Positions 16,543 through 58,830 of a stretch of 59,274 bases of DNA are shown here, in pieces (within the stretch, counting starts at the first letter, position 1; every line of letters starts with the position of its first letter). Source of the DNA: an uncultured Desulfobacterales bacterium (lineage in GTDB: Bacteria; Desulfobacterota; Desulfobacteria; Desulfobacterales; C00003060); NCBI GenBank assembly GCA_964502365.1, contig CAZCWQ010000004.1, positions 1 through 59,274 on the forward strand. Direction: 5' to 3'. The notes under the pieces are model-generated. The model was not told the origin of the DNA and searched no databases. It saw only the letters and a list, made by a program, of their open reading frames with translations. A program made the translations under genes and the position numbers.

Positions 16543-17679
<1,137 letters not shown>

Positions 17680-18625: not shown

Positions 18626-18706
18626 TGGACTCGCACAAAGTCTTTTGGGAGCGACATTGAACAAGACCGATTTTTTACGAAACCGTCAAAATTAGGGACA
18701 AGAGCG

Positions 18707-42082: not shown

Positions 42083-44056
42083 CTAAGAAAAGTGTGGAGC
42101 AGGAGTGGGATTCGAGCTGTGTCCTCGGAGTATCCGACTATCTCCCACAGGTACTGTATACTGAATACTATCCAAGTAGTCCAGCAGGGTAGCCGCACGA
42201 CTACAGTTAATTCCGGCCAACTCCTTCAAGTCGACAATAGAAATCTGGCCATGTTTTGCTACATAGCCTCCAACTATGTTCTTGATTCCTTCCAGATTCT
42301 TCCTATGCATATAAGCTCCTTTTTGTAATGGATGCCTTTTCGACAAACGAGGGTTTCTTACGAATATCAGATCCTCAACTTTTGTTAGGAACGAAACGAC
42401 ATTATGTACCTCTCTGGGGTCAGCGTGATTCATGGCTATCAGCAAGGCGTTCATGGTGAAAACTGCATTTTGCTTCTGGGTGGCAAACTCTTCTATGGCA
42501 GAACGAACAATCTCTTGCGTAGGGCTTAAATGTGCTTGAAAGTCAGCCAGCCGAACGATTCCTTTGTTTGTGAAGATAACGTCTTCTTTCAATAGTTCCT
42601 CGATAAGATGCTCAAACACACCAATATCTATGTGCCTGAAATAAGACGACCTCATGTCCTCCTTGGGGATACCCCTTTCAAGAGGATTCGTCTCGTGAAA
42701 TTGTTTGATAACATTTACCATCTGGATCTTCATTGCATCGTATTTTTCTCTATGAAAGAATTGATCATTTCCCAGTGAAACGATTCTGCATTTTTCTTCA
42801 AGACTCGTCAGGATTTTTTCTATTCTCTTCCGACTAACCCCGGTCTTGCTGCTCAAAGTCTTTATGCAGATTGGGCAGCATGTCTCCTCCTTAATTACAT
42901 TTTCTATGACCTCGTCATCTGCGCCATCCATGATAAGTCTCAAATACTGAACATTAGCTCCGCCCCCTCTTCTAAACTTCCTTCTTGCGATCTCGAGAAC
43001 AGTTCCGCCTCCAATAGTGGTCACCGGACTCAAGGTCCTAACAATATATCTATCGAAAGGAAGCGGGGTGAGTCTGTCAAGAAGGCGAAACTGCACAAAG
43101 GCACTTTCTCCCGGACGGACCACATCTTTATCCATAAAAACCATAAGCGCATTCGTTTCACTTGCACCTGTATGAAATCTGATTCTTGTCCGGTTTTGCA
43201 AGGGCTTTGTTTGAGAAGCTAAATAGTAGAATCGAGCATTTAGGAAATGAGAGGACATCAAACTTCCCGGTTCACCGACAACCATTCCCCTACAAATGTC
43301 GCTCAGTCCAACCTGAGGCAGGTTCAGTGCCACCCGCTCGCCAGCATATGCTTCATTAACCTTTTTCCGATAAACCTGGATGGAACGAACTCTGTCCCGT
43401 ATGCTTGAAGGATATATCTCTATCTCATCTTCCTTTCCAATCTTACCTGAAGCCATAGTTCCAGTCACAACAGTTCCAAATCCCCGCATATGAAACACTC
43501 TATCAATGGGAAGACAAAAAACCCCTTCAGGATCCTTTGTCAGACTAGTTTCGCCAAGTGTCTCCAAGGCAGTCTCGATCTCCGCTTTGCCTTCAAGGGT
43601 GCGTACAGAAAAAGGTACGCACGGGGCACCTTCCAAAAAGGAGCCCCTGGTTAAGTCATTGATTTCATCCATGGCCATTGCTATGAGTTCTTGATCTACC
43701 AAATCCACCTTTGAAAGCACTACTAAACCCTGCCTAATACCCAGTAGCTTGAGGATATCAAGATGTTCTCTGGTTTGGGGCATCACACCATCATCAGCAG
43801 CCACCACCAACATTGCCACATCAATCCCGCATATACCGCGAAGCATATTTTTTATGAAACGCTCATGACCCGGCACATCTATAAAGGCCATATTTTGACC
43901 AGAGGGAAGGCTATAAGGAGCAAAGCCCGGCTGTATAGTCAACCCTCTTTGTTTTTCTTCCTGCAAAGAATCTGTGTCTATCCCGGTCAGGGCCTTAACC
44001 AAGGCTGTTTTTCCATGATCAACGTGTCCAGCCGTTCCCACAACCACATGCTTCAA
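42083..44056 (-). CDS. selB: Selenocysteine-specific elongation factor SelB (start placed at TTG 44056)
   Basis: It has GTPase motifs AGHVDHGKT, DVPGHERF and SKVD, EF-Tu-like domains II/III and about 250 aa of C-terminal winged-helix repeats ending in LDYLDSIQYTVPVGDSRILRG. GGAGG (44068-44064) lies 7 nt upstream of the TTG. The 40 codons further upstream in the track ORF are the tRNA gene read as protein. Confidence 0.9.
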   Translation of the reverse strand: MKHVVVGTAGHVDHGKTALVKALTGIDTDSLQEEKQRGLTIQPGFAPYSLPSGQNMAFIDVPGHERFIKNMLRGICGIDVAMLVVAADDGVMPQTREHLDILKLLGIRQGLVVLSKVDLVDQELIAMAMDEINDLTRGSFLEGAPCVPFSVRTLEGKAEIETALETLGETSLTKDPEGVFCLPIDRVFHMRGFGTVVTGTMASGKIGKEDEIEIYPSSIRDRVRSIQVYRKKVNEAYAGERVALNLPQVGLSDICRGMVVGEPGSLMSSHFLNARFYYLASQTKPLQNRTRIRFHTGASETNALMVFMDKDVVRPGESAFVQFRLLDRLTPLPFDRYIVRTLSPVTTIGGGTVLEIARRKFRRGGGANVQYLRLIMDGADDEVIENVIKEETCCPICIKTLSSKTGVSRKRIEKILTSLEEKCRIVSLGNDQFFHREKYDAMKIQMVNVIKQFHETNPLERGIPKEDMRSSYFRHIDIGVFEHLIEELLKEDVIFTNKGIVRLADFQAHLSPTQEIVRSAIEEFATQKQNAVFTMNALLIAMNHADPREVHNVVSFLTKVEDLIFVRNPRLSKRHPLQKGAYMHRKNLEGIKNIVGGYVAKHGQISIVDLKELAGINCSRAATLLDYLDSIQYTVPVGDSRILRGHSSNPTPAPHFS

Positions 44057-44079: not shown

Positions 44080-44171
44080 TGGAAGGGGCAAGGGGAATCG
44101 AACCTCCTCCTCGTTTCTTAGACGAGGCCAACGGGTTTGCAGCCCGCGGGGCGCCCAGCACCTTTGCCCCT
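44080..44171 (-). tRNA. tRNASec-like tRNA with Cys anticodon GCA and U73 (selC*/tRNAReC-like)
   Basis: Hand fold of 92 nt. The acceptor stem is 8 bp (AGGGGCAA/TTGCCCCT) and the D arm is GGTG/CGCC. The anticodon stem GCGGG/CCCGT carries the loop CTGCAAA. The variable arm is CCTCGT/ACGAGG (6 bp). The T stem GG(A)GG/CCCC carries the loop TTCGATT. The discriminator is T and CCA is encoded. Confidence 0.85.
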
Positions 44172-44374
44172 AACAAACCATAGATACGAAAATGGATTTT
44201 GTCTCTACACTCTTTTCTCGATTGGTCGATTCGTACAGATTACGCTGCCGGAATACTGTTTGCTAATGAAAGAATCTTATGCGGCAGGTCTTCTTCTCGC
44301 CTCCGGTCTCCCCTTTTCTCGTGTTCGGGATCAGTTGAGCCTATTTTACAGACATTCTATCTGGAGAATATCAA

Positions 44375-44536: not shown

Positions 44537-46000
44537 CTACCTGAGTTCGGCCAAGTCCCTGGATATGACAAGCAAAAACCCCAAGGGGAAGACCATCAGG
44601 AAGGGTATAGCTATCCACGTCCCTCTTTCCCAGGCAAAAAACAAGGGCAGGAGGGTGTATAAGAACAGGGCTGCATTCATGATGATGTACGACCAAGCCC
44701 GCTGACGGTAGAGATAAGCCAACTTAGGCAAAGGAGCGCCGCCGTGAACACCAAATTTCGCAGTGCGCCTAAAAATACCACCTTTACATATCATTCCTTG
44801 AACAACCGCCAGTCCCAGGCTGGGTGCCAGACCTATGGTCAACATTGGAAGGAGAAGTAGTGGAAGAAAAGGATTTCCATCCTTTTGCTTAGCAGCGTAA
44901 AGACAAAAGTAAAGCATTACAGCCCCGCTTCCAAAAAGAAGAAGGGGAAAATCAGACCGAAACAGTTGATATGGCCCTATTCCAATTCTAACATGAATCG
45001 CAGGATAAAGGGTAAGGGTCACGATGGCACCCAGCAGCCAGCCAAAGTTAGCCAATAGATGTACAGAGGCCTCAACTTTCAGCCGAAGTGGCACAGAACG
45101 GGACAGCAGGAGAGAAGGAAGGATTTTTTTTGCTGTTTGGATCGACCCTTTTGCCCAGCGCTGTTGTTGGCTTCGAAATGCGCTTAGTGTTACGGGAAGC
45201 TCGGAAGGAACGACCAGGTCGTCAACATATACGAACCGCCAACCTGCAAGTTGAGCCCGGTAGCTCAAATCCAGATCTTCCGTTACGGTGTCGGGTTTCC
45301 AGCCTCCAGCTGACAGGATGGCTTCCCGTCGCCAAATACCCGCGGTACCATTGAAGTTAAAGAAGAGTCCTCGCGTGAATCGGACCTGATGTTCGATCCT
45401 GAAATGCTGACCTAGAAGCAAGGATTGAACACCTGTAAGCCAAGAACGTTCCTTATTCAAGAAACCCCAACGGGCTTGGACCATACCAACTCTTGAATCT
45501 GAAAAGTAGGGTACGGTCCGAACCAAAAAGTCACGAGGAGGAACAAAATCAGCATCAAAAATAGCTATGAATTGCCCAGTTGCGTCGGCAAGGCCTTGGT
45601 CCAAAGCTCCAGCCTTGAAACCGTCACGGCTCTCACGACGAAATACCTTGATGTCAATCCCGTTCCCTGACCAATGTGCAACTCGCTCATCCACAATCGT
45701 CCTCGTATCGTCTGTAGAGTCATCTAATACTTGTATTTCTAACCTCCTGCGGGGCCAATCTAGTCTTGCCGCAGCGTCAATGAGACGTCCTGCCACAAAG
45801 CGTTCATTGAAAAGCGGCAACTGGACAGTTACACTACATGGCCTTGAGGCGGAAGGGCCAGCTTTTTCTGCTACGCTAGGATCGAGACGTTGTGAGCACC
45901 AACACGCAAAAAACCACAGTCTGTGCAAACCGTATAGAGCAAGACCTCCCAAGGCAAAAAGATAAACAGTTATCCAAAATTGTTCAATGCAAGAACTCAT
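44537..46000 (-). CDS. Membrane-embedded processive family 2 glycosyltransferase (cellulose-synthase-like superfamily)
   Basis: 487-aa ORF with N-terminal TM helices, DDSTDDT, DADF, a QQQRWAKG (QxxRW) motif and a multi-TM C-terminus. Confidence 0.85.
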   Translation of the reverse strand: MSSCIEQFWITVYLFALGGLALYGLHRLWFFACWCSQRLDPSVAEKAGPSASRPCSVTVQLPLFNERFVAGRLIDAAARLDWPRRRLEIQVLDDSTDDTRTIVDERVAHWSGNGIDIKVFRRESRDGFKAGALDQGLADATGQFIAIFDADFVPPRDFLVRTVPYFSDSRVGMVQARWGFLNKERSWLTGVQSLLLGQHFRIEHQVRFTRGLFFNFNGTAGIWRREAILSAGGWKPDTVTEDLDLSYRAQLAGWRFVYVDDLVVPSELPVTLSAFRSQQQRWAKGSIQTAKKILPSLLLSRSVPLRLKVEASVHLLANFGWLLGAIVTLTLYPAIHVRIGIGPYQLFRSDFPLLLFGSGAVMLYFCLYAAKQKDGNPFLPLLLLPMLTIGLAPSLGLAVVQGMICKGGIFRRTAKFGVHGGAPLPKLAYLYRQRAWSYIIMNAALFLYTLLPLFFAWERGTWIAIPFLMVFPLGFLLVISRDLAELR

Positions 46001-46191
46001 GGATACGCCACTTCGTTGGAACTGGTATCGTCCCCGCTCAAACTGTTTCTTATTTCAATTACGCTTCACAAGGAAAACCACTGCAGCCCACCGCTAGAAG
46101 CGCCTATTTCTCATTTTGTATGACATTTTATAGAAGCACTCTTTCAGAAGCAAATTGATTTTTTGAATAGAGCAGTTCAAAATGTATTGAG

Positions 46192-46216
46192 ATTATCTAT
46201 TTGCGTAATAGATAAT
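46192..46216. promoter_or_regulatory. Perfect 10-bp-arm palindrome ATTATCTATT-n5-AATAGATAAT (candidate operator)
   Basis: Read directly from the sequence. It lies in the divergent intergenic region between the GT2 gene (-) and the barrel-rhodanese genes (+). Confidence 0.5.
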
Positions 46217-46231
46217 ATTAGTGTAAAAAGG

Positions 46232-46251
46232 TATGTAATGTTAATTACATA
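46232..46251. promoter_or_regulatory. Second palindrome TATGTAAT-n4-ATTACATA
   Basis: Perfect 8-bp arms, about 45 nt upstream of the ATG at 46296. Confidence 0.4.
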
Positions 46252-46295
46252 ACAGAAGCATTAGGTGCAAAGAAGCTAAGGGGAAAGGAGTTTCT

Positions 46296-47135
46296 ATGAA
46301 AAGGAGTGTTATCATTACTGTGTTTACATCTTTAATTGTGTTGGCCTTGACAAATCAAAGTTTTGCTGGCGCTTGGACGCGAGAAAAGGGCAGTTCTTAT
46401 AACCGGCTTGCTTTCAACTATTATTACTCCAATAAGAATTACATCGAGAACAGTGACAGGGTAGCCTTCCCTAATGATGGCTGGTTTCAAGATGTGAATC
46501 TCAATTACTATGTGGAATATGGACTAGTCGACCGTACTACACTTATTGGATCCTTTTACTACAAGTGGATCAGAAAGCAAGACAGTACAATTAGAATGAA
46601 GACTTATGGAGTCGGGGATGTCGAACTGGCTGCCAAATACAGAATGCTTGATTCCTCTTTCGGTATTCTTTCAGCCCAAGGATTGATCAAGATTCCGGAA
46701 CTCTATGATGAGGACGACGCTCTTCCCCTTGGCAACGGGCAGTATGATTTCGAAGTGAAACTTCTATACGGACGTTCTCTGTGGCCCCACGTCCCTGGCT
46801 ACTGCAATTTCGAGGTCGGCTACCGCCTGAGAGCGGAAGAACCTGCCGATGAGTTCAGATTCGTTGCTGAATTGGGCCTCAACTTTGGACAGCATTTTTA
46901 CGGCCGCGTCAAGGCAGATGGCATTCTGGGCGCTGATAACGGCGAAACAATTGTTGATATTAGTGGCAATCCCTCAATTACCAATGACTTTGATCTGATA
47001 AAACTCGATATGGCGTTTGGATATAAGATCACGAAAAGTTGGGCAGTGGAAGCAGCATGTACCCCTTCGATCTATGGCGAGAACACAGCAGCCGGTACGA
47101 CTTACACGCTGGCTCTGGTGATGGAGACCTGGTAG
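46296..47135 (+). CDS. Putative outer-membrane beta-barrel protein
   Basis: 279-aa ORF with a signal peptide (…LALTNQSFA/GAW), an alternating amphipathic pattern rich in Tyr/Gly and a terminal aromatic residue (…METW). Confidence 0.65.
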   Translation: MKRSVIITVFTSLIVLALTNQSFAGAWTREKGSSYNRLAFNYYYSNKNYIENSDRVAFPNDGWFQDVNLNYYVEYGLVDRTTLIGSFYYKWIRKQDSTIRMKTYGVGDVELAAKYRMLDSSFGILSAQGLIKIPELYDEDDALPLGNGQYDFEVKLLYGRSLWPHVPGYCNFEVGYRLRAEEPADEFRFVAELGLNFGQHFYGRVKADGILGADNGETIVDISGNPSITNDFDLIKLDMAFGYKITKSWAVEAACTPSIYGENTAAGTTYTLALVMETW

Positions 47136-47292
47136 GCGCGTCCGTTCGCCTAGGGCTGATCGCCAAGATTGGGGTATTCGAAGGTCAATTCTGAAAGGGA
47201 AATCTTAACGAAAGGGGGTGTATCGATACCTTAGCACATGCTCTCATAGGCAAATGCCTTTGAGAATCTCTTCAATAATAGGAGGCGACAAA

Positions 47293-49389
47293 ATGAGGAG
47301 GAGAAACTATTACTTATTAACTTTCGTCGTGTTAATTGTTTTAGCTGGTCTCTGCCTAAACGGTTGCGGCGAGTCGGTGGACTTGGCGGAGCAAGGATCA
47401 ATATCAGGTTTGTCTGAAGAAACTCCGTCAGGTTCTGTCTTGGCTTTTGGGACAGGTGATTACCCAAACTCTGAACTTCTTGTGTCTGGAGAGGAGATTG
47501 AAGACAACCTGTCCAAGGTGCGGAAAGCGAGCCTTCAGGCCAGCCAGGCAGAGACTGCCGAATCTTATGACTTCGTCATCATTGACGCAAGAGGCGAACC
47601 ACTGCCCGACCCACAGGACCCCGATTATGACCAGCACCCGTACGTGCAAGGGCACATTCCGGGTGCTATTAGCCTAGCTTGGCAGCAGTTTGGCGCACCA
47701 AACTTGAACCCGGTGTCAGAACTTGAAGATGTCTTGACCAACACAGGTATCACCAGAGACATGACCATCGTCATTTATGATGATACGACAGCATCATGGG
47801 GTGCCGCCGGTCGCGTCTTTTGGACTCTGGAATACTTGGGGTGTGAAGATGTGCATCTTTTGCAAGGCGGCTGGGACAAATGGGTGGCCGACGGCCGGCT
47901 TACTGAAACCAGGGCCAACACTTTGCCGGATGCTCCAGCGTTTGTCGCCCAAGTCAACAATGACATCATGGCCACAAAAGAACACGTAAGTGACCGGCTA
48001 GAGGATGACGACTTCGTGATCATCGACTCCCGGACCGACGAGGAATACAACGGCTGGACGCTCTACGGTGAAGCCCGGGGCGGACACGTTTCGGGGGCCG
48101 TGCAAATCCCTTATGAGTGGTTTTTTTACGAAGACAAGACCATATTGAGCAGCGATGATCTGCAAGACCTGTTTGAGTCCAGGGGTATCACTCTGGACAA
48201 GGAGGTGAGTTCTTACTGCACGGCTGGTATCCGCAGCGGATTCGTGTACTTTGCACTCCGCCTAATGGGGTATCCGAACTGCTCGAACTACGATGGGTCC
48301 ATGTATGACTGGGCTGTTGCTTCCGTGGCTGATCCCGATGTCTACCCCATGGAACAAATGGCCAATTACCAGAAGCTTGTACATCCAGGATGGGTGAAAA
48401 ACCAGCTTATCGACGGGAACAACGCTGGCAAACCCTATGTCATCGTTGAAACGTCGTGGGGCCCTGCCGGCGACTATTATAATGACGGTCACATTCCAAA
48501 AGCAGTACACGTGAACACGGATGAAATCGAATATGACTGTTTCAACCCCCGCAATGACTGGCCTGTAGACCCCGGAGACCCTCCTTGCTGGGATCGCAGC
48601 ACCACTGAGGAGGAGGATGCCGCTAAAGGTCTAGGGCCAGATGACGCGCTCCCTAAAAACTGGTGGAATCTCTACCCAGACCAATATCTACTGCCTGCCA
48701 TCGCCTATATGGGGATTGATAAGGACACGACGGTCGTTGTGTACAGCAAAAGTTTCTCGGCCGCAGCACGGATCGTGTGGACGTTGATGTATGCGGGCGT
48801 TGAGGATGTGCGCCTGCTTAACGGCGGCAAGGACACCTGGGTAGCAGCCGGCTACACATTGGAAACCACAGCCAATGATCGCACCCCCGTGTCTGAGTTT
48901 GACCCCGAAGACCCTGGCGCAACATCAGCCCTTCACCCGGAGTACCTTGTGGATACGGCCTATGTCCTCCAGGCAACGGCCGATCCAAACAACGTCGATC
49001 CTCCTGCCGTGATTGCCGAGATTCGCAGGTGGGAGGAGTTCATCGGTGCCTCCCGTCCCTATTCCTATATCCCCGCTGATGGCCGTATTGCAGGTGCCGT
49101 ATGGGGCCACAATACAGATGCCTTTGTCGACGCTGACGGGACTCTTCGAACCTACACGGAGGTTGAGAAATTGTGGTCCGAAAATGGCATTACCTCCGAT
49201 ATGTCGGCGAGCTTTTACTGAGGGACAGGATGGAGGTCAAGTTTGGCCTGGTTTTTGGCCCACCTGATGGGCTGGGACAATATCACCAATTATGATGGTT
49301 CATGGTATCAATGGACTGAGGGGCTGGATCCGCTGGATCCCGGCTATCCCCCTAACCCCGTGGTGGATGAGGAGCCAGATCTGCCCTAG
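47293..49389 (+). CDS. Four-domain YnjE-like rhodanese lipoprotein with in-frame TGA (49219-49221) at the last catalytic Cys position; candidate selenoprotein
   Basis: The ATG at 47293 follows GGAGG, and a lipobox is present (LCLNGC). The domains run inactive/active/inactive/active, with active loops YCTAGIRS and FY-TGA-GTGWRSS. Reading through the TGA gives 55 further in-frame codons (GTGWRSSLAWFLAHLMGWDNITNYDGSWYQW...) that complete the rhodanese fold. Confidence 0.75.
49243..49272 (+). promoter_or_regulatory. Candidate SECIS-type hairpin(s) downstream of the TGA
   Basis: There are two mutually exclusive small hairpins 22-50 nt after the TGA. One is TTGGCC(tggttttt)GGCCCA and the other is GCCCA(cctga)TGGGC. 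Neither was evaluated with a model. Confidence 0.3.
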
Positions 49390-49694
49390 AAGTTAGGAGA
49401 GCGTGACTTGTTGTGCTATCAAGAAGCATCTTTGAACAATTAGTCAGAGAGGTATTGGGACCTAGGGCAAAACAACAGCAATACATGAGGCAAAAGACGG
49501 GAAGCCATGGGAGGCGTTTCAGGGTCCCCTCGCCTTCCTAGTGTATACATCCTATGGGATTCAGTTCGTTCAAGTTGGCGCACGAGTGGTCATTTTGTTT
49601 CGATTCGACGTGCCCAGCAGAGGGTTCATTATACTTCCGTAGGTTCGTGAACCCCACTGCCAGTTATGAAGCCTAGCTTCGAAGATGAGACACC

Positions 49695-51545
49695 ATGTGT
49701 CTTTACAAAACCATAGCCCCAGACTCGGTAAGAAAAGACTTGGCCCATGACGGCGTTGATTCATTACCTAGGACAGAGGCAAAAAGCATCTTTGAAAAAT
49801 GCATCAACTGTGAGCTCTGCCAAAAGGAGTGCCAACTCCTCAGAAAGTACGGCAAGCCCAAGGATATTGCAGAATCCTATAACCCTTCTGATAATGACCA
49901 TCAGGCTGTGCCCTTTGAGTGCAGCCTTTGCCAGCTTTGTGCTGCGGTGTGTCCCGTGGATGTCAATCCTGGCAACATGTTCCTGGAGATGCGCCGGGGG
50001 TTGGTAAACCAGAGGAATGGGGACTATCCAGAATATTCCACTATCCTCGGGTACGAACGGCGGGGAACGTCCCGTCGCTATACCTACTATGCTATTCCTG
50101 CTGGTTGTGACACCATCTTTTTTCCAGGTTGTACCCTCCTGGGCACCAGGCCAGACAAGACATCAGAACTCTATGATCACATGAAAAAGGACATTCCCGC
50201 ACTGGGGATCGTCCTCGACTGCTGCACAAAGCCCTCACATGACCTTGGTCGACAAGATTATTTCAATGCTATGTTTGATGAAATGAAAGGTTTTCTTATA
50301 AGAAACGGCGTTTCAAGAGTTCTCGTTGCATGTCCCGACTGTTATGATGTCTTCAGAAAGTACGGCGAGGAGCTCTCTGTCAGAACAGTCTATGAGTTCA
50401 TGGTAGAAAACGGTTTGCCGAACAAAGAAGAAGTGAATGGAACTGTGACCATTCACGATCCATGTGTTATCAGGTGGGAAGAGGCCATTCATTCTGCTGT
50501 CAGAGATCTGTGTACAAGAAAGGGACTAACCATCGAAGAGATGCCCCATCATGGGAAAACAACAATGTGCTGTGGGGAAGGGGGCGCGGTCGGTTGCGTG
50601 TCACCCCATCTTGCAAACAAATGGGGAGCTCTCATCAAGAAGGAAGCTAATGGCAGGAGGATTGTTACTTATTGTGCTGGGTGTGCAAATTTGTTAGATG
50701 CCATAACACCCACCAGCCATGTCCTGGATGTCTTATTTGAGCCGGAAACCACACTGTCTGGCAAAGCCAAGGTTTCCAAGTCGCCGGTTACCTACCTGAA
50801 CCGGCTAAGGCTGAAGAAGCGGCTCAAGAATACGGTCAATGCTTCAGTAACACGGGAGAGGACATTCACTGGGGGGGAGGAAAAGAAAAAAGGAACAGTG
50901 ATTAAGCGCGTCTTTTTTCTTTTGGCTATCCTGACTGCGATTCTGGCAGTGCGGTTCACAGGTGCAGCACATTACCTGCAACAAGAGACGCTCAGGCAGT
51001 GGATTCAGGGTTATGGAGCACTGGCTCCGGTTGTTTACATGCTCATATACACGGTTGCACCGGCCCTCTTTTTGCCTGCCCTTCCCATCACCATAGTGGG
51101 CGGAGTCCTCTTTGGCCCGTTCTGGGGCGTGGTTTACACTATCACCAGTGCTACCTCAGGTGCTTGTGTGGCCTTCATCATATCACGTTACATAGCCAGG
51201 GAATGGATCGAGGAAAAGCTGAAAAGTCCGAAATGGCATCAGCTTGACGAGGGGGTGCAACGGCATGGATGGAAGGTTGTTGCCTTCACCCGTCTGATAC
51301 CGTTGTTTCCTTTTAACCTGCTTAATTACGCCTTCGGCCTTACGAAAATAAGATTTATCCACTATGCCATAACGACATTCATCTGCATGCTCCCAGCCTG
51401 CATTGCATATGTTGTCTTTTCAAGCTCGCTGCTCGATGTGATAAAAGGAAGGATATCTCCCGCATTTATTGCCGGGATGGGTCTCATTGTGCTGGTCTCG
51501 TCAGTGCCCATTTTTTACAGACGCTACAAGGCAAAAAAAGGATGA
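49695..51545 (+). CDS. Fusion protein: 2x[4Fe-4S] ferredoxin motifs plus two CCG Cys-rich domains (HdrD/GlpC/LldE-like) plus a C-terminal TVP38/DedA (SNARE-associated) membrane domain
   Basis: The ferredoxin motifs are CINCELCQKEC and CSLCQLCAAVCP. The CCG-type motifs are ...PGCTL...DCCTKP... and HDPCV...MCCGEGG...YCAGC. From about aa 400 there are TM helices and the TVP38 signatures GVLFGPFWG and FTRLIPLFPFNLLNYAFG. Confidence 0.8.
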   Translation: MCLYKTIAPDSVRKDLAHDGVDSLPRTEAKSIFEKCINCELCQKECQLLRKYGKPKDIAESYNPSDNDHQAVPFECSLCQLCAAVCPVDVNPGNMFLEMRRGLVNQRNGDYPEYSTILGYERRGTSRRYTYYAIPAGCDTIFFPGCTLLGTRPDKTSELYDHMKKDIPALGIVLDCCTKPSHDLGRQDYFNAMFDEMKGFLIRNGVSRVLVACPDCYDVFRKYGEELSVRTVYEFMVENGLPNKEEVNGTVTIHDPCVIRWEEAIHSAVRDLCTRKGLTIEEMPHHGKTTMCCGEGGAVGCVSPHLANKWGALIKKEANGRRIVTYCAGCANLLDAITPTSHVLDVLFEPETTLSGKAKVSKSPVTYLNRLRLKKRLKNTVNASVTRERTFTGGEEKKKGTVIKRVFFLLAILTAILAVRFTGAAHYLQQETLRQWIQGYGALAPVVYMLIYTVAPALFLPALPITIVGGVLFGPFWGVVYTITSATSGACVAFIISRYIAREWIEEKLKSPKWHQLDEGVQRHGWKVVAFTRLIPLFPFNLLNYAFGLTKIRFIHYAITTFICMLPACIAYVVFSSSLLDVIKGRISPAFIAGMGLIVLVSSVPIFYRRYKAKKG

Positions 51546-51640
51546 CAGATCTTTTGTGAGATTCAACCGAGCGATTATAATACAGCCGTCGGTGCACCAG
51601 CCCCGGTAGTTTCGAATCTTGGCTTTGCAGATCACATGCC

Positions 51641-52363
51641 ATGTATTTAGGAAAAACCATAGCCCTGCTTCTTCCGGCAAGAAACGAAGCGGCTGCCTTA
51701 CCTGGCGTCCTTAAGATGGTTCCTCAACAGGTGGATCGAGTCCTAGTGCTTGATAACGCTTCCATAGATTCGACTGCACAGGTAGCAAAGGAACACGGAG
51801 CAGAGGTTGTCATAGAGAATAAGCCGGGATATGGGCGAGCCTGTCTGCGAGGGTTAAAGTTTCTCGAAACCAATCCTCCTGACATTGTAGCCTTTGCGGA
51901 TGCAGACGGCAGTGACAATCTTTCTTTCCTGCCTGAGATGCTCAAGCCCCTTGTTAAAGGAGACTCTGATCTGGCATTAGCTTGCCGGATCCCTGATAGT
52001 CACGACGCCATGAGTGCTCAGCAACGCCTGGGCAACTGGCTGGCCACTCAGCTCATACGCCTTTTCTGGCGCCATGTGTACAATGACCTTGGACCCATGC
52101 GGGCCATTGCATGGAAGGCCCTTTCTGAGCTCCATATGAGGGATCCGAACTACGGGTGGACTGTGGAAATGCAGATAAGAGCCCTCAAGAAGCGGTTGCG
52201 GGTAAGGGAATACCCAGTCTTGTACTACAAAAGGGCCGCAGGCCGTTCGAAAGTCAGCGGTTCCTTGGTGGGCAGCCTTCGGGCTGGAATAAAGATACTG
52301 TGGATCATCGGGCGGGAAGCCATTTTGAGAAAATCCAGCTGGCAACAGTGTGATGTCTCTTAA
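51641..52363 (+). CDS. Family 2 glycosyltransferase (polyprenyl-phosphate glycosyltransferase-like)
   Basis: 240-aa ORF with LLPARNE, LDNASIDST and ADADGSD motifs. Confidence 0.85.
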   Translation: MYLGKTIALLLPARNEAAALPGVLKMVPQQVDRVLVLDNASIDSTAQVAKEHGAEVVIENKPGYGRACLRGLKFLETNPPDIVAFADADGSDNLSFLPEMLKPLVKGDSDLALACRIPDSHDAMSAQQRLGNWLATQLIRLFWRHVYNDLGPMRAIAWKALSELHMRDPNYGWTVEMQIRALKKRLRVREYPVLYYKRAAGRSKVSGSLVGSLRAGIKILWIIGREAILRKSSWQQCDVS

Positions 52364-52368
52364 GTCTT

Positions 52369-53850
52369 TCATCCGGTCGTCAATAGACTATTTTGCCGTG
52401 CCACTGACCTGTAGATTGTAATAAGAACGAAGGCTGCTACCGGTCCTATCCACGTCATGAATGCAGTTACGTCACCTTCAACCCATTGTCCACCCAAGGC
52501 ATAGGGTATAAGGACACGATATCCCAGGAAGACTGACCAAGTAAATATTAATCCTGCTGGCCCTGCAACAAAAGGGAGAAAACAGACCAGATATAATGCG
52601 TACCAAGGATGAAGGGTGGGCGTGAAAAGCAAGAACGTTATCATGATATTGTATAGCACTGAAAAAAGCATTGAAATTATTTGCTTGCTGGCACACTGGG
52701 TGTCGTATTCCAATTTCTTAAGGTAAAGCTTAACATATAGAAAAATTGTCGCTGTGAGAAAGGCGGAGCCCAGAGCCAACCTAGCAGCATTTCCGGAGAC
52801 CATTAAACGCCGCAAACTTCGATAGGCAAAGCTGCCAAATTCCCAGTGCTTGGCGTATTCTCTCAGAGTGCCGAGGGCATTTAGGACATCGGGAAAGAAA
52901 GGGAGTGTCAACAATAAGAATCCAATCATGATGCCTATCATTGCAAATGTCAGGCATCGTCTAGGCAATAGGATCAGACATCCTGGTATGAAAATGAGGG
53001 CGAAGAGTTTAACGAAACCTGCACAGGCAAGAGCCAAACCTGCAAACAAAAATAAATGGATTCTAGTTGATAACAAATGACCGTGGACTAAAGAAACTAA
53101 GCCATGGGAGTTATTAGTAGACCGCAAAGCAGCTATCAAGGTCAAGAAGCCAAGAAGAAAAAACAGTAACCCGGCCCCGTCTACATGACCTGAAGCGGCA
53201 ATTTCAAGGACCGGCAGGGGGTGCCATGCATAGAGGGCGGCCCGCCAAGCTGGGAGTTCCAGAGTAGAGAGCAGCCGCAGGATTACAGCGCATGTTGCCA
53301 GGTCCATAGCCACCAGCATGGATTTAAGGCCCAGTACGCTGCTGCCTAATGCGGATCCTGCCATGAATATGAGTTGAGCCGCAGGAGGATAAATGGTGAC
53401 TAGGTCTGGGTGGTTAACTTGTTCCAACAAATTGACTAGGATGCCACCCAGAGGTTGGCTGTCTGCGGGAGGAAGAGAATAAGGATTGTGCCCTGACAGG
53501 GTCTGAAGTCCGTCCCATAAGTATCGATAGATATCATCTGAGAGTTCAGGTGATCGAAACCAAAAAATGAGGCGAAGGCATACAGCCACAAGCATGATCA
53601 TACAAGGCGTCCATTTGATTGCTTGCTTTTCTCCCAAATACAGAGCAATAGCGAGAAGAACAGTCACGTTAGCCGTGACACCAGTGAGAGTGGGAACAGC
53701 GAGCCGCAAATCTGCCTTAATAGCTAATAAACCATAGGAGGCCACGATGAGAAAAGGTATTCCCCACGTGAGCCAGAAGTTCGTCCTCATCTTATCGAGT
53801 ATTTTAGTACCGTCCATCTTGATGCCGTGCGTTTTTCCGGCAGAATGCAA
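52369..53850 (-). CDS. Polytopic GT-C-type glycosyltransferase (DUF2029/GT87-like); the true start may be an internal Met (about 53790)
   Basis: 493-aa ORF with more than 10 TM segments. The first loop has an Asp-containing motif (SDDIYRYLWDG) typical of lipid-linked-sugar-dependent GT-C enzymes. Confidence 0.65.
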   Translation of the reverse strand: MHSAGKTHGIKMDGTKILDKMRTNFWLTWGIPFLIVASYGLLAIKADLRLAVPTLTGVTANVTVLLAIALYLGEKQAIKWTPCMIMLVAVCLRLIFWFRSPELSDDIYRYLWDGLQTLSGHNPYSLPPADSQPLGGILVNLLEQVNHPDLVTIYPPAAQLIFMAGSALGSSVLGLKSMLVAMDLATCAVILRLLSTLELPAWRAALYAWHPLPVLEIAASGHVDGAGLLFFLLGFLTLIAALRSTNNSHGLVSLVHGHLLSTRIHLFLFAGLALACAGFVKLFALIFIPGCLILLPRRCLTFAMIGIMIGFLLLTLPFFPDVLNALGTLREYAKHWEFGSFAYRSLRRLMVSGNAARLALGSAFLTATIFLYVKLYLKKLEYDTQCASKQIISMLFSVLYNIMITFLLFTPTLHPWYALYLVCFLPFVAGPAGLIFTWSVFLGYRVLIPYALGGQWVEGDVTAFMTWIGPVAAFVLITIYRSVARQNSLLTTG

Positions 53851-54643
53851 TGGGGCTGCAACTTATGACCTTGCTCTTATCGAACCAGCGACTCTCAACC
53901 GCAACCTTTCAGATTGGATCGTCCTCGATGCTCGTCCGAAAACCGAATGGCGAACTTCACATATACATGGTGCCATGTCGTTTTCCTGGGAAGACTATAC
54001 TTCAACGGACAAGAAAAATATACCTTACAGGATCTGGTCGCCAGAAAAGATAGCTGCGGCCCTGGGAAACATGGGAATTAGTGAAAGCAGTCGAATCGTA
54101 GTGTATGGAGATGCGGACACAAGCTGGGGGGGAGAAGGATGGGTGTGTTGGGTATTCACATGGCTGGGGCATCAGGGACCCATCCGTGTGCTCGCCGGGG
54201 GGATCCAGTCCTGGAAAAAGCATGGCTTTCCCATGGGGCCACATGTTAGACAGACGGCAGGTGTACCAGTGGAGTACAGATTCAAAGTGAGGCCACAAGT
54301 CAATATCACAACAAATGAGATTGAGCAGGAAAAATCGAACATCGTACTGGTTGACACGCGTTCAACCCTTGAGTGGATCAAAGGACATCTCCCAGGCGCG
54401 GTTCATGTAAAGTGGAACCGATTCTACTCGGGAAAGGATCGACGTCCCCTGAGCTCCAATGAGATGAGAGACCTTTTGCACCGGCATAAGGTTGGCCAAC
54501 AGAAACCAGTAGTTTATTACTGCACGGGCGGGATTCGATCGGCATATGCTTGGCTGGTGCATACGTTATCCGGAATGCCACCAGCACGCAACTACGAGGG
54601 GGGAACGGAAGCCTGGAAGCGTCTTTCTTCCGATTCCGGTTAG
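53747..54643 (+). CDS. Two-domain rhodanese sulfurtransferase (SseA/TST-like)
   Basis: 298-aa ORF. The N-terminal domain is inactive (YGDADTSWG) and the C-terminal active loop is YCTGGIRS. A hydrophobic N-terminus suggests export. The start is uncertain because it overlaps the divergent gene. Confidence 0.8.
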   Translation: MRKGIPHVSQKFVLILSSILVPSILMPCVFPAECNGAATYDLALIEPATLNRNLSDWIVLDARPKTEWRTSHIHGAMSFSWEDYTSTDKKNIPYRIWSPEKIAAALGNMGISESSRIVVYGDADTSWGGEGWVCWVFTWLGHQGPIRVLAGGIQSWKKHGFPMGPHVRQTAGVPVEYRFKVRPQVNITTNEIEQEKSNIVLVDTRSTLEWIKGHLPGAVHVKWNRFYSGKDRRPLSSNEMRDLLHRHKVGQQKPVVYYCTGGIRSAYAWLVHTLSGMPPARNYEGGTEAWKRLSSDSG

Positions 54644-54707
54644 CTTCTTATTTTCCCATGAACCCTTCATTATTATATTACTGTTGCTTTAGTCACTTTT
54701 AACACTC

Positions 54708-54736
54708 TTGACTTGGCCTATTCAGCACCCTATATT
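54708..54736 (+). promoter_or_regulatory. Near-consensus sigma70-type promoter TTGACT-17 nt-TATATT
   Basis: TTGACT is at 54708-54713 and TATATT at 54731-54736. The site is about 55 nt upstream of the ATG at 54791. Confidence 0.55.
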
Positions 54737-54790
54737 GCGTTTCACAAAGTGCGTGAAGAACTTTTAGACTTTGGGAAAGGAGGTGTTAAT

Positions 54791-55051
54791 ATGGAAGGAA
54801 AACATGAACACAGGCACCTGCATTCTCACGAGCACACCCATCTTCACACCCATGAGCACCGGCACGGGGATGAGGTCCACAACCACGAACACTCACACGC
54901 GCACACCCACGAACACGAGCACGAACATTCCCACGAGCATTCTCATCCTGGAGACAAGCATGTGCATAACCACGATCACAGCGGAGACCACGGCACCCAC
55001 GACCATGTCCATCCAGGTCATGAAGCTGAAGTGCACGATCACACGCACTGA
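54791..55051 (+). CDS. Histidine-rich small protein (putative metal-binding or metal-storage protein)
   Basis: 86 aa, roughly 40 percent His by eye, with HEH/HxH repeats (HEHTHLHTHEHRH...HTHEHEHEHSHEHSH). AAGGAGG lies 7 nt upstream of the ATG. Confidence 0.75.
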   Translation: MEGKHEHRHLHSHEHTHLHTHEHRHGDEVHNHEHSHAHTHEHEHEHSHEHSHPGDKHVHNHDHSGDHGTHDHVHPGHEAEVHDHTH

Positions 55052-55073
55052 GTCTCTGCACAACTGGCTTTCA

Positions 55074-55110
55074 AGAAAGGGCGAACCCACAAGGTTCACC
55101 CTTTCTGCTT
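55074..55110 (+). terminator. Strong hairpin after the His-rich gene (terminator or attenuator)
   Basis: AGAAAGGGCGAACC cacaa GGTTCACCCTTTCT pairs at 13 of 14 positions. GCTT follows it. Confidence 0.5.
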
Positions 55111-55149
55111 GTGGAATACTTATTCCATTCGTAACATGGAGTGGCTAAT

Positions 55150-56169
55150 ATGCAAATAGATCCTAAGGTCACGGACATTGTTGCCAAGGTATTGGATGGT
55201 CACCTTCTTACACGGGATGAAATCGACTTTGCTCTGAAAATTCCTGCTCATTCTCCTGAGGCTGGCCTTGTAATGGCGGCTGCTGACGCAATTAATCGTG
55301 CAGCCTCAAAGGGCAAGGCTGAAGTTCACGCTCAAATAGGTGTTAATCTGTCACCTTGCCCGAACAACTGTTCATTTTGTGCATTTGCTGCCAAGAATAA
55401 GGTCTTCAAAGAAAGAAATGAACTTAGCGCAGACAATGTTACTAAACTGGCGCTGATAGCAGAGCGAGACGGAGCTAACGCGATATTTTTCATGACTACC
55501 GCTGATTATCCCTTTGGTAAATTCGTAGAGATATCAAAGGAAGTCAGGACAGTACTTGCGCCGCACACGGTCATGATAGCCAATATTGGCGACTTTAATT
55601 ATGAAGAAGGTAAGCGGCTGAAGGATGTGGGTTATGCGGGCATATATCACGCTGTGAGAATGGGCGAAGGGGAAGAAACCAAGATCGATCCCAAGACCCG
55701 ACTTAATACTCTTAGAGCTGGTCGTGACGCTGGGCTGTTGATCGGCACATGTGTGGAACCTGTAGGTCCGGAACACTCCATAGAGGAGATTGCCGAAAAG
55801 ATTCTCATAGGACGGGGCATGACACCCTGTTACAGCGGTGCCATGCGGAGAATCAGTATACCGGGCTCTGAAATGGAGAAATATGGAATGATAAGCGAGT
55901 ACCATTTGGCATTTCTGGTTGCCGTTGTTCGATTGGCCATGGGCAAGGAGGTTATTGGAAACTGCACTCATGAACCTAACGTGCTGGGGGCAACATCTGG
56001 GGCCAACCTATTTTGGGCCGAAGTAGGTGCCAATCCCCGCGATACGGAGGTTGAGACTTCCAAGGGGCGAGGATCGGGCGTGGGATCGTGTGTTAAAATG
56101 TTCAAAGAAGCTGATTTTGACATACTTCAGGGGTCATCAGTTATTTACAGCAACAACCATCGTGGCTAA
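55150..56169 (+). CDS. Radical SAM protein, BioB-like family
   Basis: It has the CPNNCSFC (CX3CX2C) motif and a TIM-barrel-like length. The ATG at 55150 lies 8 nt after GGAG. Confidence 0.85.
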   Translation: MQIDPKVTDIVAKVLDGHLLTRDEIDFALKIPAHSPEAGLVMAAADAINRAASKGKAEVHAQIGVNLSPCPNNCSFCAFAAKNKVFKERNELSADNVTKLALIAERDGANAIFFMTTADYPFGKFVEISKEVRTVLAPHTVMIANIGDFNYEEGKRLKDVGYAGIYHAVRMGEGEETKIDPKTRLNTLRAGRDAGLLIGTCVEPVGPEHSIEEIAEKILIGRGMTPCYSGAMRRISIPGSEMEKYGMISEYHLAFLVAVVRLAMGKEVIGNCTHEPNVLGATSGANLFWAEVGANPRDTEVETSKGRGSGVGSCVKMFKEADFDILQGSSVIYSNNHRG

Positions 56170-56375: not shown

Positions 56376-56825
56376 GTGAGCGGGACGAACATCAACTGTC
56401 CGCCTCACACGCCTGATCCAGAACGGATCAGACAAATAGTCCAAGAATTTCAATACGCTGTTTTCTTCAAAGTGGATGGACCCTATGAGAAAGACAGTGG
56501 GAGCATCCAGGAGATGAAGCTGAAGAACCTTGAGATTTTATCAAAAATCGAGGCCCAAGCATATTATGATGGCTACTATCTGGCTGTTGGGTTTGGCGGA
56601 GCATCGTGTAAAACTACCCTTTGCTCTGACGAGGATTGCAGGGCTTTGCAGCCCGGGAACTCATGTAGACATCCGTTAAAGGGAAGGCCTTCTATGCACG
56701 CAGTAGGGATGGATGCTTACAAAATGGCAACCCGGGCAGATTGGAATATCTATCCGATTGGAAAAGCGACGGTGCCATCTGAAGTACCATTCGTCTCCCA
56801 CTTGGGACTCATCCTCCTCTATTGA
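56376..56825 (+). CDS. DUF2284-like Cys-rich metal-binding protein, apparently N-terminally disrupted
   Basis: 149-aa ORF (GTG) beginning within a ...C....C........CPP motif. The two upstream Cys codons lie in frame before the GTG but behind a TAG at 56307. A plausible N-terminus (MYDWKVFRAIQTHGY...) is in another frame at 56206. Confidence 0.5.
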   Translation: MSGTNINCPPHTPDPERIRQIVQEFQYAVFFKVDGPYEKDSGSIQEMKLKNLEILSKIEAQAYYDGYYLAVGFGGASCKTTLCSDEDCRALQPGNSCRHPLKGRPSMHAVGMDAYKMATRADWNIYPIGKATVPSEVPFVSHLGLILLY

Positions 56826-58073: not shown

Positions 58074-58120
58074 GGCCACGAAGGCTATCCACCTGAAGGT
58101 GGGGTTCGTGGCCTTTTTTT
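58074..58120 (+). terminator. Bipartite terminator-like hairpin plus T7 tract, copy 1, 12 nt upstream of the methyltransferase ATG
   Basis: The outer stem is GGCCACGAA/TTCGTGGCC and the inner hairpin is CCACC tgaa GGTGG. The tract TTTTTTT follows. Confidence 0.6.
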
Positions 58121-58131
58121 GTGAGCAGAAG

Positions 58132-58830
58132 ATGGAAAAGGAAATATGGAAAAGAGCAACAACATCGTCCTTCTGGCAAGGGTATTCCCGTTGGTACCAG
58201 CAATGGATGGCCCATAGTCATTATCACGACGGGATTACAAGAATCATGACCTTCATGGCAAGGCCCACATGGCGTGTTCTTGATATCGGGGCCGGGAATG
58301 GCGTTCTTTCCATGCCCCTGGCCCGAATGGGATGCGAGGTAACAGCGCTAGAGCCATCCTCGGCCATGAGACATCTGCTCAGGCAGGCAGCAGATCGCTC
58401 CCATGGTATGCACACTGACATGCGAAGATGGGAGACGGTTCCGTGCGAAGCATTTCGTGGTTATGATTTGATTTTAGCCTGCAACAGTCTTCATCTCACT
58501 CAAATTGGCTTTACACCAGCTTTGGCAAAGGTTTTTGCTACCGAGCCGAAACGCGTAGTCGTCGTCACGGAGTTTGTCTCCCCTGAAATAAGGATTCCCA
58601 TCCGGTTAAGGAATTACTACATGGAGTATGGCAGGATAGAGCAGGTAGACAGCTCCTTTGCCTACCACAGCGTGGATGAGGCCTTGGAGCACTGGTCCGC
58701 CAATAACGGCAAGCCTCCTGACACGTGGAAGTGTGACGAGATCAAGCAAAAGCTTGTGAACAGAGGGGATCACCTGTGGATAGAGGATTCGGCCTTCGTG
58801 GGTATTTTTTGTTGGAAGGCTTTCCAGTGA
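58132..58830 (+). CDS. Class I SAM-dependent methyltransferase
   Basis: It has the motif I sequence VLDIGAGNGVLS and the acidic motif II CEVTALEPS. The start is set at the ATG at 58132, after the terminator-like hairpin. Confidence 0.85.
   Translation: MEKEIWKRATTSSFWQGYSRWYQQWMAHSHYHDGITRIMTFMARPTWRVLDIGAGNGVLSMPLARMGCEVTALEPSSAMRHLLRQAADRSHGMHTDMRRWETVPCEAFRGYDLILACNSLHLTQIGFTPALAKVFATEPKRVVVVTEFVSPEIRIPIRLRNYYMEYGRIEQVDSSFAYHSVDEALEHWSANNGKPPDTWKCDEIKQKLVNRGDHLWIEDSAFVGIFCWKAFQ

Follow-up and report, generated by a model that had tools for sequence, protein, structure and literature searches.

How is a TGA to be read when it stands in frame at the very place where a rhodanese carries its catalytic cysteine? 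The question arises from a gene in the window analyzed here, a contig of 59,274 nt from an uncultured Desulfobacterales bacterium, in which the reading frame continues past the TGA to a TAG (Table 1). We consider it highly probable, on the strength of sequence comparison, that the codon specifies SelB/SECIS-directed selenocysteine (Sec) at the persulfide-carrying position of the fourth rhodanese domain. This reading draws on the pairing of TGA with cysteine codons in relatives, an intact downstream frame, the recurrence of the TGA in other assemblies, a hairpin specific to the TGA forms, and the synonymous changes around it.

The interrupted gene and its relatives

In the mechanical list of open reading frames, the rhodanese gene is entered at 47218–49221, with a GTG start and a product of 667 aa ending in MSASFY. 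The true start is likely the ATG at 47293, which has an AGGAGG 7 nt on its 5′ side and is also where the database protein P0001 (642 aa) begins; from this start the TGA is codon 643. The DNA around the site reads ATG TCG GCG AGC TTT TAC TGA GGG ACA GGA TGG AGG TCA AGT, and the frame past the TGA translates as GTGWRSSLAWFLAHLMGWDNITNYDGSWYQWTEGLDPLDPGYPPNPVVDEEPDLP before the TAG at 49387–49389. An earlier note on this DNA had described the same arrangement, with the 667-aa frame ending MSASFY-TGA and 55 in-frame codons following, and the sequence agrees with it.

Table 1. Coordinates of the features discussed, as positions of the window.
Feature	Position	Strand	Remarks
Read-through coding sequence	47293..49389	+	697 sense codons and TAG; TGA is codon 643; four rhodanese domains, predicted lipoprotein
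Predicted lipoprotein signal peptide MRRRNYYLLTFVVLIVLAGLCLNGC	47293..47367	+	Lipobox L-N-G-C with Cys25; sequence pattern only
TGC, Cys309	48217..48219	+	Catalytic residue of the second rhodanese domain, an ordinary cysteine; loop CTAGIRS
In-frame TGA, predicted selenocysteine codon 643	49219..49221	+	Site of the catalytic residue in the fourth rhodanese domain; loop U-G-T-G-W-R
Post-TGA codons (n = 55)	49222..49386	+	Rest of the active-site loop, next helix and NYDGSWYQW motif of domain 4
SECIS-like hairpin core AGGUCA-AGUU-UGGCCU	49234..49249	+	6 bp, 4-nt apical loop; G23 and U24 counted from the U of UGA
Extended imperfect stem, GGG.CAGGA...core...UUUUG.CCC	49222..49261	+	−16.7 kcal/mol over 48 nt
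Sec-like tRNA, anticodon GCA	44083..44172	-	A1:U72, discriminator U73; selC*-type tRNACys; no fit to UGA
SelB-family elongation factor	42083..44056	-	Directly downstream of the Sec-like tRNA; selC*/selB* arrangement (PMC5389517)

Pfam PF00581 matches the protein four times (E = 1.4e-55), and its signal peptide marks it as a predicted exported lipoprotein; orthologues have similar N-termini (LWGC, LAGC, LPGC, LSGC and the like). The domain 4 loop, [TGA]-G-T-G-W-R, is identical to the CGTGWR of YnjE except for the first codon. Comparison of the AlphaFold model of the cysteine-containing orthologue P0002 (pLDDT 90) with EanB and YnjE, in which the corresponding cysteine bears the persulfide, gave TM values of 0.83–0.86. 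In P0002, C290 and R295 of the CTAGIRS loop occupy invariant columns of a 52-sequence alignment.

Alignment places the TGA opposite the catalytic cysteine of E. coli YnjE (SFYCGTGWRAS vs SFY-TGA-GTGWRSS, E = 4.8e-48). Among the best 120 homologues, all those that extend to the site have a cysteine at it (FYCGT[AG]WRS); a few partial or aberrant sequences fall short of it, and three stop at FY immediately before it, namely P0001, which is the window's own product, P0053 and P0085. The earlier note had put the stop codon at the persulfide-carrying cysteine and had suggested an alignment of YnjE-like homologues as a check, and both the YnjE alignment and the homologues uphold this placement. TGT occupies the site in the two closest orthologues (P0002, 74% identical; P0003, 70%), and their loci are syntenic with the window, comprising a 279-aa protein, the four-rhodanese protein and an Fer4/CCG protein. 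Over the first 32 residues past the TGA, 26 are the same as in the nearest cysteine orthologue, and the corresponding codons differ by seven synonymous and six non-synonymous changes.

Three further, independent assemblies also have TGA at this codon (L001, L002 and L018, with L004 on the same contig as L002), where the tails after it are open and conserved over 44–47 codons. In the BLAST similarity ranking these variants are interspersed among the cysteine forms; the window and L018 share the loop U-G-T-G, and L001 and L002 share U-G-T-A. TGA variants were sought with the degenerate pattern TTYTAYTGAGGNACNGSNTGGMG, which returned 17 genome and 11 metagenome loci. Other than L004 and L018, the matches were chance hits in unrelated frames, about as numerous as estimated in advance.

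That the TGA is an assembly or sequencing error hiding a TGC or TGT is extremely unlikely. The codon is indeed one base away from either, and P0001 is found on one contig only, the window's own, with no second contig holding the protein; yet the same TGA stands in three unrelated assemblies, and in the 24 nt that follow it seven more bases differ from the cysteine orthologue, all of them towards the other TGA variants, so a single error cannot account for the TGA.

A hairpin that accompanies the TGA

The core of a SECIS-like hairpin lies 13–28 nt past the TGA, that is at nt 16–31 counted from the U of UGA; the hairpin is a short one of 6 bp, with a folding energy of −7.1 kcal/mol (z = −1.35). 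The same element is found in the same register in L001, L002 and L018. All four TGA variants (4/4) have a hairpin of 6–9 bp that starts at nt 14–16 from the U of UGA and displays G23-U24 in a loop of 3–5 nt, whereas a hairpin of such geometry was found at none of nine cysteine-codon sites in relatives. Within the window, 21 of 2169 TGA triplets (about 1%) satisfy the rule used for this comparison (at least 6 bp, start at nt 14–16, GU in a 3–5 nt loop), a background which, taken with the recurrence of the TGA codon in three other assemblies, places the association beyond chance. Folding in small windows gave the TGA variants z values between −1.35 and −4.27, as against −0.34 to +1.17 for the five cysteine-codon sites treated likewise.

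The earlier note had reported small hairpins 22–50 nt downstream and had proposed folding the 82-nt interval that begins with the TGA. A downstream hairpin does exist, but its relevant core is nearer to the codon than indicated, and the whole 82-nt region folds no better than its shuffles (z = −0.13). Total folding energy is uninformative here, which is why we relied on the geometry rule with its window-wide background and on the comparison of TGA with cysteine sites. The other TGA variants do not share the stem extension around the core. RNAalifold, applied to the four variants, gave eight pairs, none with a double compensatory change; the changes in pairs are one-sided only (G-C to G-U, U-G to U-A), and L002 has its 3′ stem strand displaced by one base. 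The support that the hairpin lends is consequently one of presence versus absence, not of covariation. Two cautions apply: conservation of the RSSLA protein segment alone favours part of the stem, and the comparison comprises only four TGA variants and nine cysteine sites.

Near the site, the differences between the window and its closest cysteine orthologue are mainly synonymous and build the hairpin: TCC>TCA, AGC>AGT and CTG>TTG give the stem and the AGUU loop. Between codons +1 and +11, three of eight synonymous codons are identical to those of the nearest cysteine orthologue, as against 199 of 281 over the remainder of the C-terminal stretch compared. The proportions are reversed against the distant TGA variant L001, with which six of eight synonymous codons are kept at +1 to +11 and 88 of 212 elsewhere.

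It is very unlikely that the TGA is a true stop in a truncated or decaying gene, with the hairpin and the T-run behind it acting as an intrinsic terminator. Gene callers do finish P0001, P0053 and P0085 at the TGA, but the truncated product would have neither the catalytic loop nor the final helices of domain 4, and the 44–55 codons past the TGA are open and conserved in four lineages. Although a terminator scan flags the hairpin at 49234–49249, followed by GGTTTTTGGC, and the remaining three TGA variants also have a T-rich run behind their hairpins, the stem has three G-C pairs only, and the scan gave two terminator-like sites against a shuffle mean of 4.0. The T-run consists of Phe/Leu codons of a conserved AWFL/AFFY helix, which also occur in cysteine orthologues that have no hairpin, and it is this conserved coding role, together with selection on the downstream frame, that leads us to reject the terminator. 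Under the selenocysteine reading, the SECIS hairpin and the U-run might, speculatively, attenuate downstream transcription when selenium is scarce.

Decoding of the UGA and a proposed function

About 3 kb upstream of the rhodanese gene lies a SelB-family gene (TIGR00475 selB, 321.6 bits vs a cut-off of 242) that encodes the SelB winged-helix domains recognized by Pfam. It adjoins the sole tRNA in the window, a Sec-like tRNA whose anticodon loop, CUGCAAA, yields GCA in a covariance-model alignment. As a candidate decoder of the UGA at codon 643 this neighbouring tRNA was ruled out, since the anticodon GCA reads UGC/UGU; with GCA and U73 it cannot read UGA, and the idea in the earlier note that a nearby Cys-charged tRNASec mimic restores cysteine at the TGA is not supported. 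The SelB-like gene may encode SelB*, a paralogue, instead of canonical SelB. No selA, selD or tRNASec(UCA) was found on the 59-kb contig; every genome in which the selC*/selB* arrangement has been seen had a complete sel system (PMC5389517).

Decoding of the UGA as cysteine or another standard amino acid could still come about through a selC* tRNACys(UCA) encoded elsewhere and working with the SelB-like factor, or through near-cognate read-through. Desulfobacterales can carry selC* tRNACys(UCA), SelB* and CysRS*, a selC* tRNACys(UCA) put cysteine at UGA in an E. coli test, and the A1:U72 pair of the window tRNA is tied to UCA-type selC* (PMC5389517), with the selC*/selB*-type pair only 3 kb upstream. 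We nevertheless regard such decoding as improbable: the tRNA that is present pairs with cysteine codons, the SelB-like gene is followed not by a cysS*-like gene but by an opposite-strand ORF for a cytidylyltransferase, a change from TGY to TGA merely to reinsert cysteine would bring no gain, and a SECIS-like hairpin has been gained or kept in the TGA variants, as in true selenoprotein genes. The selenocysteine reading advanced in the earlier note is supported by the homologues, the three further TGA variants, the TGA-specific hairpin and the codon changes.

Elsewhere in the window, 13 other large ORFs use TGA as a normal stop, and no convincing second gene with an in-frame TGA emerged from a scan of the entire window; three in-frame ORFs at 17057–19654 appear to be adjacent genes. 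Selenoprotein forms of DUF2284 are known, and an upstream in-frame TGA was looked for at the DUF2284 gene (56376–56825), where none was found.

The protein would be organized as two rhodanese tandems, in which domains 1 and 3 are predicted to be inactive and domains 2 and 4 catalytic. Domain 2 would act through Cys309, and in domain 4 the codon for the catalytic cysteine would have been replaced by UGA. The hairpin 13 nt past the UGA would serve as a bacterial SECIS and bind SelB.GTP.Sec-tRNASec at the mRNA channel entrance. Sec would thereby be inserted at 643 in place of termination, and the last 55 residues could finish domain 4. The selenolate would then attack a sulfane-sulfur donor, for example thiosulfate or polysulfide, keep the sulfur bound in an Se-S(H) adduct and hand it to an acceptor. 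Insertion of Sec at 643 is an inference, as are the chemistry, the substrate and the presence of selA, selC(UCA) and selD at other genomic loci.

The gene cluster containing the Sec-rhodanese gene recurs in several Desulfobacterales-type contigs. It encodes a predicted outer-membrane protein, multi-rhodanese lipoproteins, an Fe-S/CCG/VTT membrane fusion and a radical SAM protein, along with a GT2 transferase of the polyprenyl-phosphate-sugar type and an MptA/B-like membrane glycosyltransferase. Together with the persulfide C-S bond chemistry of EanB, which is among the closest structures, this content suggests that the cluster could serve to load an envelope molecule, such as a lipid-linked sugar, with sulfur or selenium. 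That the Sec-rhodanese is the chalcogen-carrying catalyst of an undescribed envelope pathway, and not a generic thiosulfate sulfurtransferase, is a long shot.

Because gene callers cut the protein at residue 642, its database entry lacks the active site. Of the three further TGA variants, at least two (P0053, P0085) are truncated in the same way. Taking the TGA for selenocysteine would make the enzyme complete again. The predicted Sec form and its cysteine counterpart are 85% identical across the catalytic module of a YnjE/EanB-type rhodanese, and such a close natural pair would be handy for probing what selenium contributes, be it a more reactive Se-S intermediate, protection against over-oxidation or the handling of selenium itself. 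None of this alters how selenoproteins are currently understood.

Comparison with known selenoproteins, rhodaneses and SECIS elements

Rhodanese selenoproteins have been predicted from 2004–2005 on. A rhodanese-related sulfurtransferase and a sulfurtransferase of COG2897 were listed as predicted selenoproteins in surveys of the Sargasso Sea and of an Olavius symbiont (PMC1088965, PMC1976440), and a 2026 review lists rhodanese-like domain-containing protein forms 2 and 4 with the motif UxxG (PMC13188914), all of which confirms what the earlier note had said of such families. We found no biochemically characterized rhodanese selenoprotein in the literature, nor one in which selenium had been shown. 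The window gene is a well-supported new example of this already predicted type. It resembles the catalogued proteins in that Sec is predicted at the rhodanese catalytic cysteine and cysteine homologues exist; compared by motif and description, its U-G-T-G fits the UxxG of forms 2 and 4. Homologues of the window protein carry the same COG2897/SseA-type annotation, and the Olavius examples likewise stem from deltaproteobacterial sulfate reducers. It differs in being a predicted four-domain lipoprotein with the Sec domain of the YnjE/EanB subtype.

No NCBIfam model matches the four-domain rhodanese protein above its cut-off. The rhodanese selenoprotein model NF041203 (LYCAU) scores 44.3 vs a cut-off of 115, and NF045694 (TsoB) is absent from the matches of this protein; the latter matches only the neighbouring two-domain rhodanese (53747–54643), at 38.9 vs a cut-off of 805. 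Domains 3–4 give a weak match to the ExtH model NF040901 (71.1 bits vs 200). ExtH of Geobacter is a rhodanese-like outer-surface lipoprotein of the extHIJKL cluster for selenite/tellurite reduction (PMC6148476), and here too a rhodanese lipoprotein gene adjoins that of a predicted outer-membrane protein. The cluster in the window, unlike that of ExtH, is without cytochromes, and its neighbours are glycosyltransferases, the Fe-S/CCG/VTT fusion and the radical SAM protein.

The C-terminal half of the window protein aligns with YnjE (PDB 2WLR/3IPO), including the active-site loop apart from its first codon, and in EanB from Chlorobium (PDB 6KTV/6H98) the equivalent Cys412 was crystallized as a persulfide. 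Both enzymes use cysteine and have three domains in place of the four seen here, and EanB forms a C-S bond on hercynine, a substrate of which there is no sign at this locus.

In the SECIS of E. coli fdhF, numbering from the UGA likewise gives G23/U24, and the spacing is 11 nt. No counterpart to its bulged U17 is evident in the window hairpin, whose loop is the 4-nt AGUU, and the minimal upper stem-loop of fdhF is 17 nt (PMC11431864). Both elements are coding-sequence hairpins just past the UGA, with an upper stem that starts 10–12 nt past the codon and a small apical loop that presents G23 and U24 in the same numbering.

The in-frame TGA and the residue it replaces

The four-rhodanese gene reads ATG TCG GCG AGC TTT TAC TGA GGG ACA GGA at 49201-49230, and the mechanical ORF (47218-49221, 667 aa) accordingly has the C-terminus MSASFY. 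Past the TGA, the frame continues as GTGWRSSLAWFLAHLMGWDNITNYDGSWYQWTEGLDPLDPGYPPNPVVDEEPDLP to a TAG at 49387-49389; translation confirmed the 55 codons counted in the earlier note. The gene probably starts at ATG 47293, which is preceded by AGGAGG and is also where the database protein of the window (P0001, 642 aa) begins, making the TGA codon 643 of a 697-residue product. Its N-terminus, MRRRNYYLLTFVVLIVLAGLCLNGC, resembles a lipoprotein signal peptide, with equivalent lipoboxes in the orthologues, and four rhodanese stretches are recognized (Pfam, E = 1.4e-55).

E. coli YnjE aligns with the C-terminal half (E = 4.8e-48), its SFYCGTGWRAS lying opposite SFY-TGA-GTGWRSS. For P0002, the closest Cys orthologue, an AlphaFold model (pLDDT 90, pTM 0.86) superposes on EanB and YnjE structures with a target-normalised TM of 0.83-0.86, and the equivalent residue, Cys412, is a persulfide in several of the matched EanB entries. 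The alignment and superposition place the TGA exactly where a rhodanese domain of the YnjE/EanB type has the residue that carries the persulfide, as the earlier note had claimed in assigning it to the catalytic Cys of the fourth domain.

Among the best 120 database homologues, three stop at FY just before the site (P0001, the window's own product, P0053 and P0085) and a few partial or aberrant sequences fall short of it; all the others read FYCG[TGSD][AGS][WY]R, and the alignment to homologues that had been proposed as a check thus has Cys at the TGA position in every non-TGA homologue reaching the site. P0002 (74% identity, and the closest at 85% over the catalytic module) and P0003 (70%) are the nearest relatives; both have TGT as the site codon and lie in loci syntenic with the window (279-aa protein, four-rhodanese protein, Fer4/CCG protein). 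In the contigs of P0053 and P0085 the site reads TTT TAC TGA GGG ACN GCA TGG AGG, and the frame after it stays open and conserved. Scanning genome and metagenome collections with a degenerate pattern re-found the P0085 contig and added one new case, L018, a Thermodesulfobacteriota genome bin with TGA at the site; the 26 other loci it returned were chance matches. TGA is found at this codon in four independent assemblies (the window, L001, L002 and L018), and by similarity ranking these variants are interleaved with Cys forms, L002 and L018 being nearest to the Cys proteins P0109 and P0082. Such a scattered Sec/Cys distribution is usual in selenoprotein families.

Two of these loci have peculiarities of their own. 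L002 has three tandem multi-rhodanese genes (627, 964 and 565+44 aa) with a TGA in the third only; a motif search found no second catalytic-type Cys loop in the third product, so Sec would be its sole active-site residue. The metagenome contig L001 has lost the N-terminal part of its variant to an IS element, with HTH_Tnp_1 and rve transposase genes immediately upstream, and despite this loss still has TGA, hairpin and open tail.

Hairpin and codon signature after the TGA

In the window, the hairpin AGGUCA-AGUU-UGGCCU (49234-49249) has a 6-bp stem, spans nt 16-31 from the U of UGA and contains G23 and U24 in its loop; a longer imperfect stem lies at 49222-49261. Its spacing and G23-U24 positions coincide with those of the E. 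coli fdhF SECIS. The minimal stem-loop of that element is 17 nt (PMC11431864). The core AGG TCA AGT TTG is common to the window, L001 and L018, and L002 has AGG ACC AGT ATG GTC, pairing as GGAGGACC-AGU-GGUCUUC. Small-window folds gave -6.1 to -11.3 kcal/mol for the four TGA variants (z -1.35 to -4.27) and z -0.34 to +1.17 for five Cys-codon sites. A hairpin was counted when its stem had 6 bp or more and began at nt 13-18 and its 3-6 nt loop included GU; by this rule one was found at all four variants, at none of nine Cys-codon sites in relatives and after 21 of the 2169 TGA triplets of the window. RNAalifold found no double compensatory change in the hairpin, and its support is therefore one of presence and absence, not covariation.

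Were the TGA a true stop, or the gene a pseudogene, the hairpin and T-run could be a terminator, and a terminator scan did flag the hairpin with GGTTTTTGG. However, the T-run encodes a conserved Trp-Phe-Leu/Phe-Phe-Tyr and also occurs in Cys orthologues without the hairpin, each of the four variants has an open tail of 44-55 codons that keeps the NYDGSWY.W motif, and the first 32 codons compared with the nearest orthologue comprise 19 identical, 7 synonymous and 6 non-synonymous ones; this reading is rejected. A T-rich run of Phe/Leu codons directly follows the hairpin in all four TGA variants, looks terminator-like to a simple scan and is probably a coding by-product, though hairpin and T-run might still have a role in selenium-dependent polarity on downstream genes.

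Compared with the closest Cys orthologue, L031, the gene has only 3/8 synonymous codons identical within the eleven codons after the site (L031 to window: GGT>GGG, ACT>ACA, GCC>GGA, TCC>TCA, AGC>AGT, CTG>TTG), but 199/281 in the remainder of the C-terminal portion that was compared. The distant TGA variant L001 gives the opposite picture, with 6/8 identical after the site and 88/212 elsewhere; the numbers are small and the direction is consistent. A single-base assembly error at the TGA is an inadequate explanation, because the following codons go with the TGA variants rather than with the nearest relative, which is consistent with selection on an RNA element there. A recoded genome is ruled out: TGA ends 13 other large ORFs of the window (stops among 35 ORFs: 14 TGA, 11 TAA, 10 TAG) and no other gene in it has a convincing in-frame TGA, which therefore indicates the standard code with local recoding.

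Gene cluster and proposed mechanism

The gene adjoins one for a predicted outer-membrane protein, within a cluster that recurs in L002, L031, L033 and L036. The cluster encodes a GT2/GT21-like synthase, multi-rhodanese lipoproteins, a small GT2, a two-domain rhodanese, a radical SAM protein, a 279-aa secreted, outer-membrane-like protein with an aromatic C-terminal residue, a Fer4-dicluster/CCG/VTT (DedA-like) fusion and a polytopic MptA/B-like membrane protein, whose homologue in L037 is annotated as MptA_B family.

Features of the window and of the other TGA loci
Feature	Position	Strand	Remark
16S rRNA gene, 5' end	1-357	-	cut by contig end
6S RNA gene	3788-3973	-	102.7 bits
SelB-family gene	42083-44056	-	TIGR00475, 321.6 bits (cut-off 242)
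Sec-like tRNA gene	44083-44172	-	directly upstream of SelB-family gene; Rfam tRNA-Sec, 50 bits (threshold 47)
Gene cluster	44537-56169		
Cys309 codon	48217-48219	+	ordinary Cys; catalytic loop CTAGIRS, rhodanese domain 2
Hairpin and T-rich run, window	49234-49259	+	
Hairpin and T-rich run, L001	4647-4672		
Hairpin and T-rich run, L002	9709-9737		
Hairpin and T-rich run, L018	2424-2449		
Fe-S/CCG/VTT fusion	49695-51545	+	
His-rich ORF	54713-55051	+	112 aa
DUF2284 metal-binding protein	56376-56825	+	after cluster
SAM-dependent methyltransferase	58099-58830	+	after cluster
Tandem multi-rhodanese genes, L002	2584-9833		
TGA variant and IS element, L001	2025-3163, 3150-4775		

The Fe-S fusion partially matches the NCBIfam model 'diclust_near_Sec' (NF045663; 227 bits against a cut-off of 530), whose name hints at selenoprotein neighbourhoods; its counterpart is called at only 412 aa in L031 and L033. 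The extremely His-rich ORF (HEHxH repeats), immediately before the radical SAM gene, overlaps an alternative 125-aa ORF in a different frame and, from its composition, may encode a metal-binding protein. DUF2284/methyltransferase fusions are known selenoproteins; no in-frame TGA was found with the DUF2284 and methyltransferase genes of the window.

At UGA643, the hairpin would recruit SelB with Sec-tRNASec, and selenocysteine would be inserted to complete the domain. The selenolate would then replace the rhodanese thiolate and carry sulfane sulfur as a Se-S adduct in a protein predicted to be exported and lipid-anchored.

Comparison with known selenium systems

The Sec-like tRNA and SelB-family genes correspond to the selC*/selB* arrangement of Desulfobacterales and Syntrophobacterales, in which the tRNA accepts cysteine and full selA-D sets are present in the same genomes (PMC5389517). 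The anticodon loop CUGCAAA gives the anticodon GCA, which cannot read UGA, so the rescue of Cys by this tRNA suggested in the earlier note does not apply. Canonical tRNASec, selA and selD are absent from the 59-kb contig, and we infer that they lie in the rest of the genome. The tRNA has an 8-bp acceptor stem starting with A1:U72 and a U73 discriminator; in the original description, A1:U72 was linked to the anticodon UCA and to a dedicated CysRS* (PMC5389517), whereas here the anticodon is GCA and no cysS*-like gene follows the SelB-family gene. Judged by these sequence features, the pair would seem to be an intermediate form or a variant that has yet to be described.

The rhodanese protein stays below the cut-off of every NCBIfam selenoprotein model. 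The Sargasso Sea survey already counted rhodanese-related sulfurtransferases among predicted selenoproteins (three sequences, COG2897; PMC1088965), they were abundant in the deltaproteobacterial symbionts of Olavius (PMC1976440), and five rhodanese forms, of which two have a UxxG motif, are given in a review of 2026 (PMC13188914); the statement of the earlier note on this family is thereby borne out. The case is solid, and it serves annotation as well as the comparative enzymology of Sec and Cys. The U-G-T-G of the window fits UxxG of the two review forms, a likeness judged on the motif (PMC13188914), and because rhodanese forms including UxxG were already listed, this four-domain YnjE/EanB-type lipoprotein is very probably a further example of a selenoprotein type predicted before.
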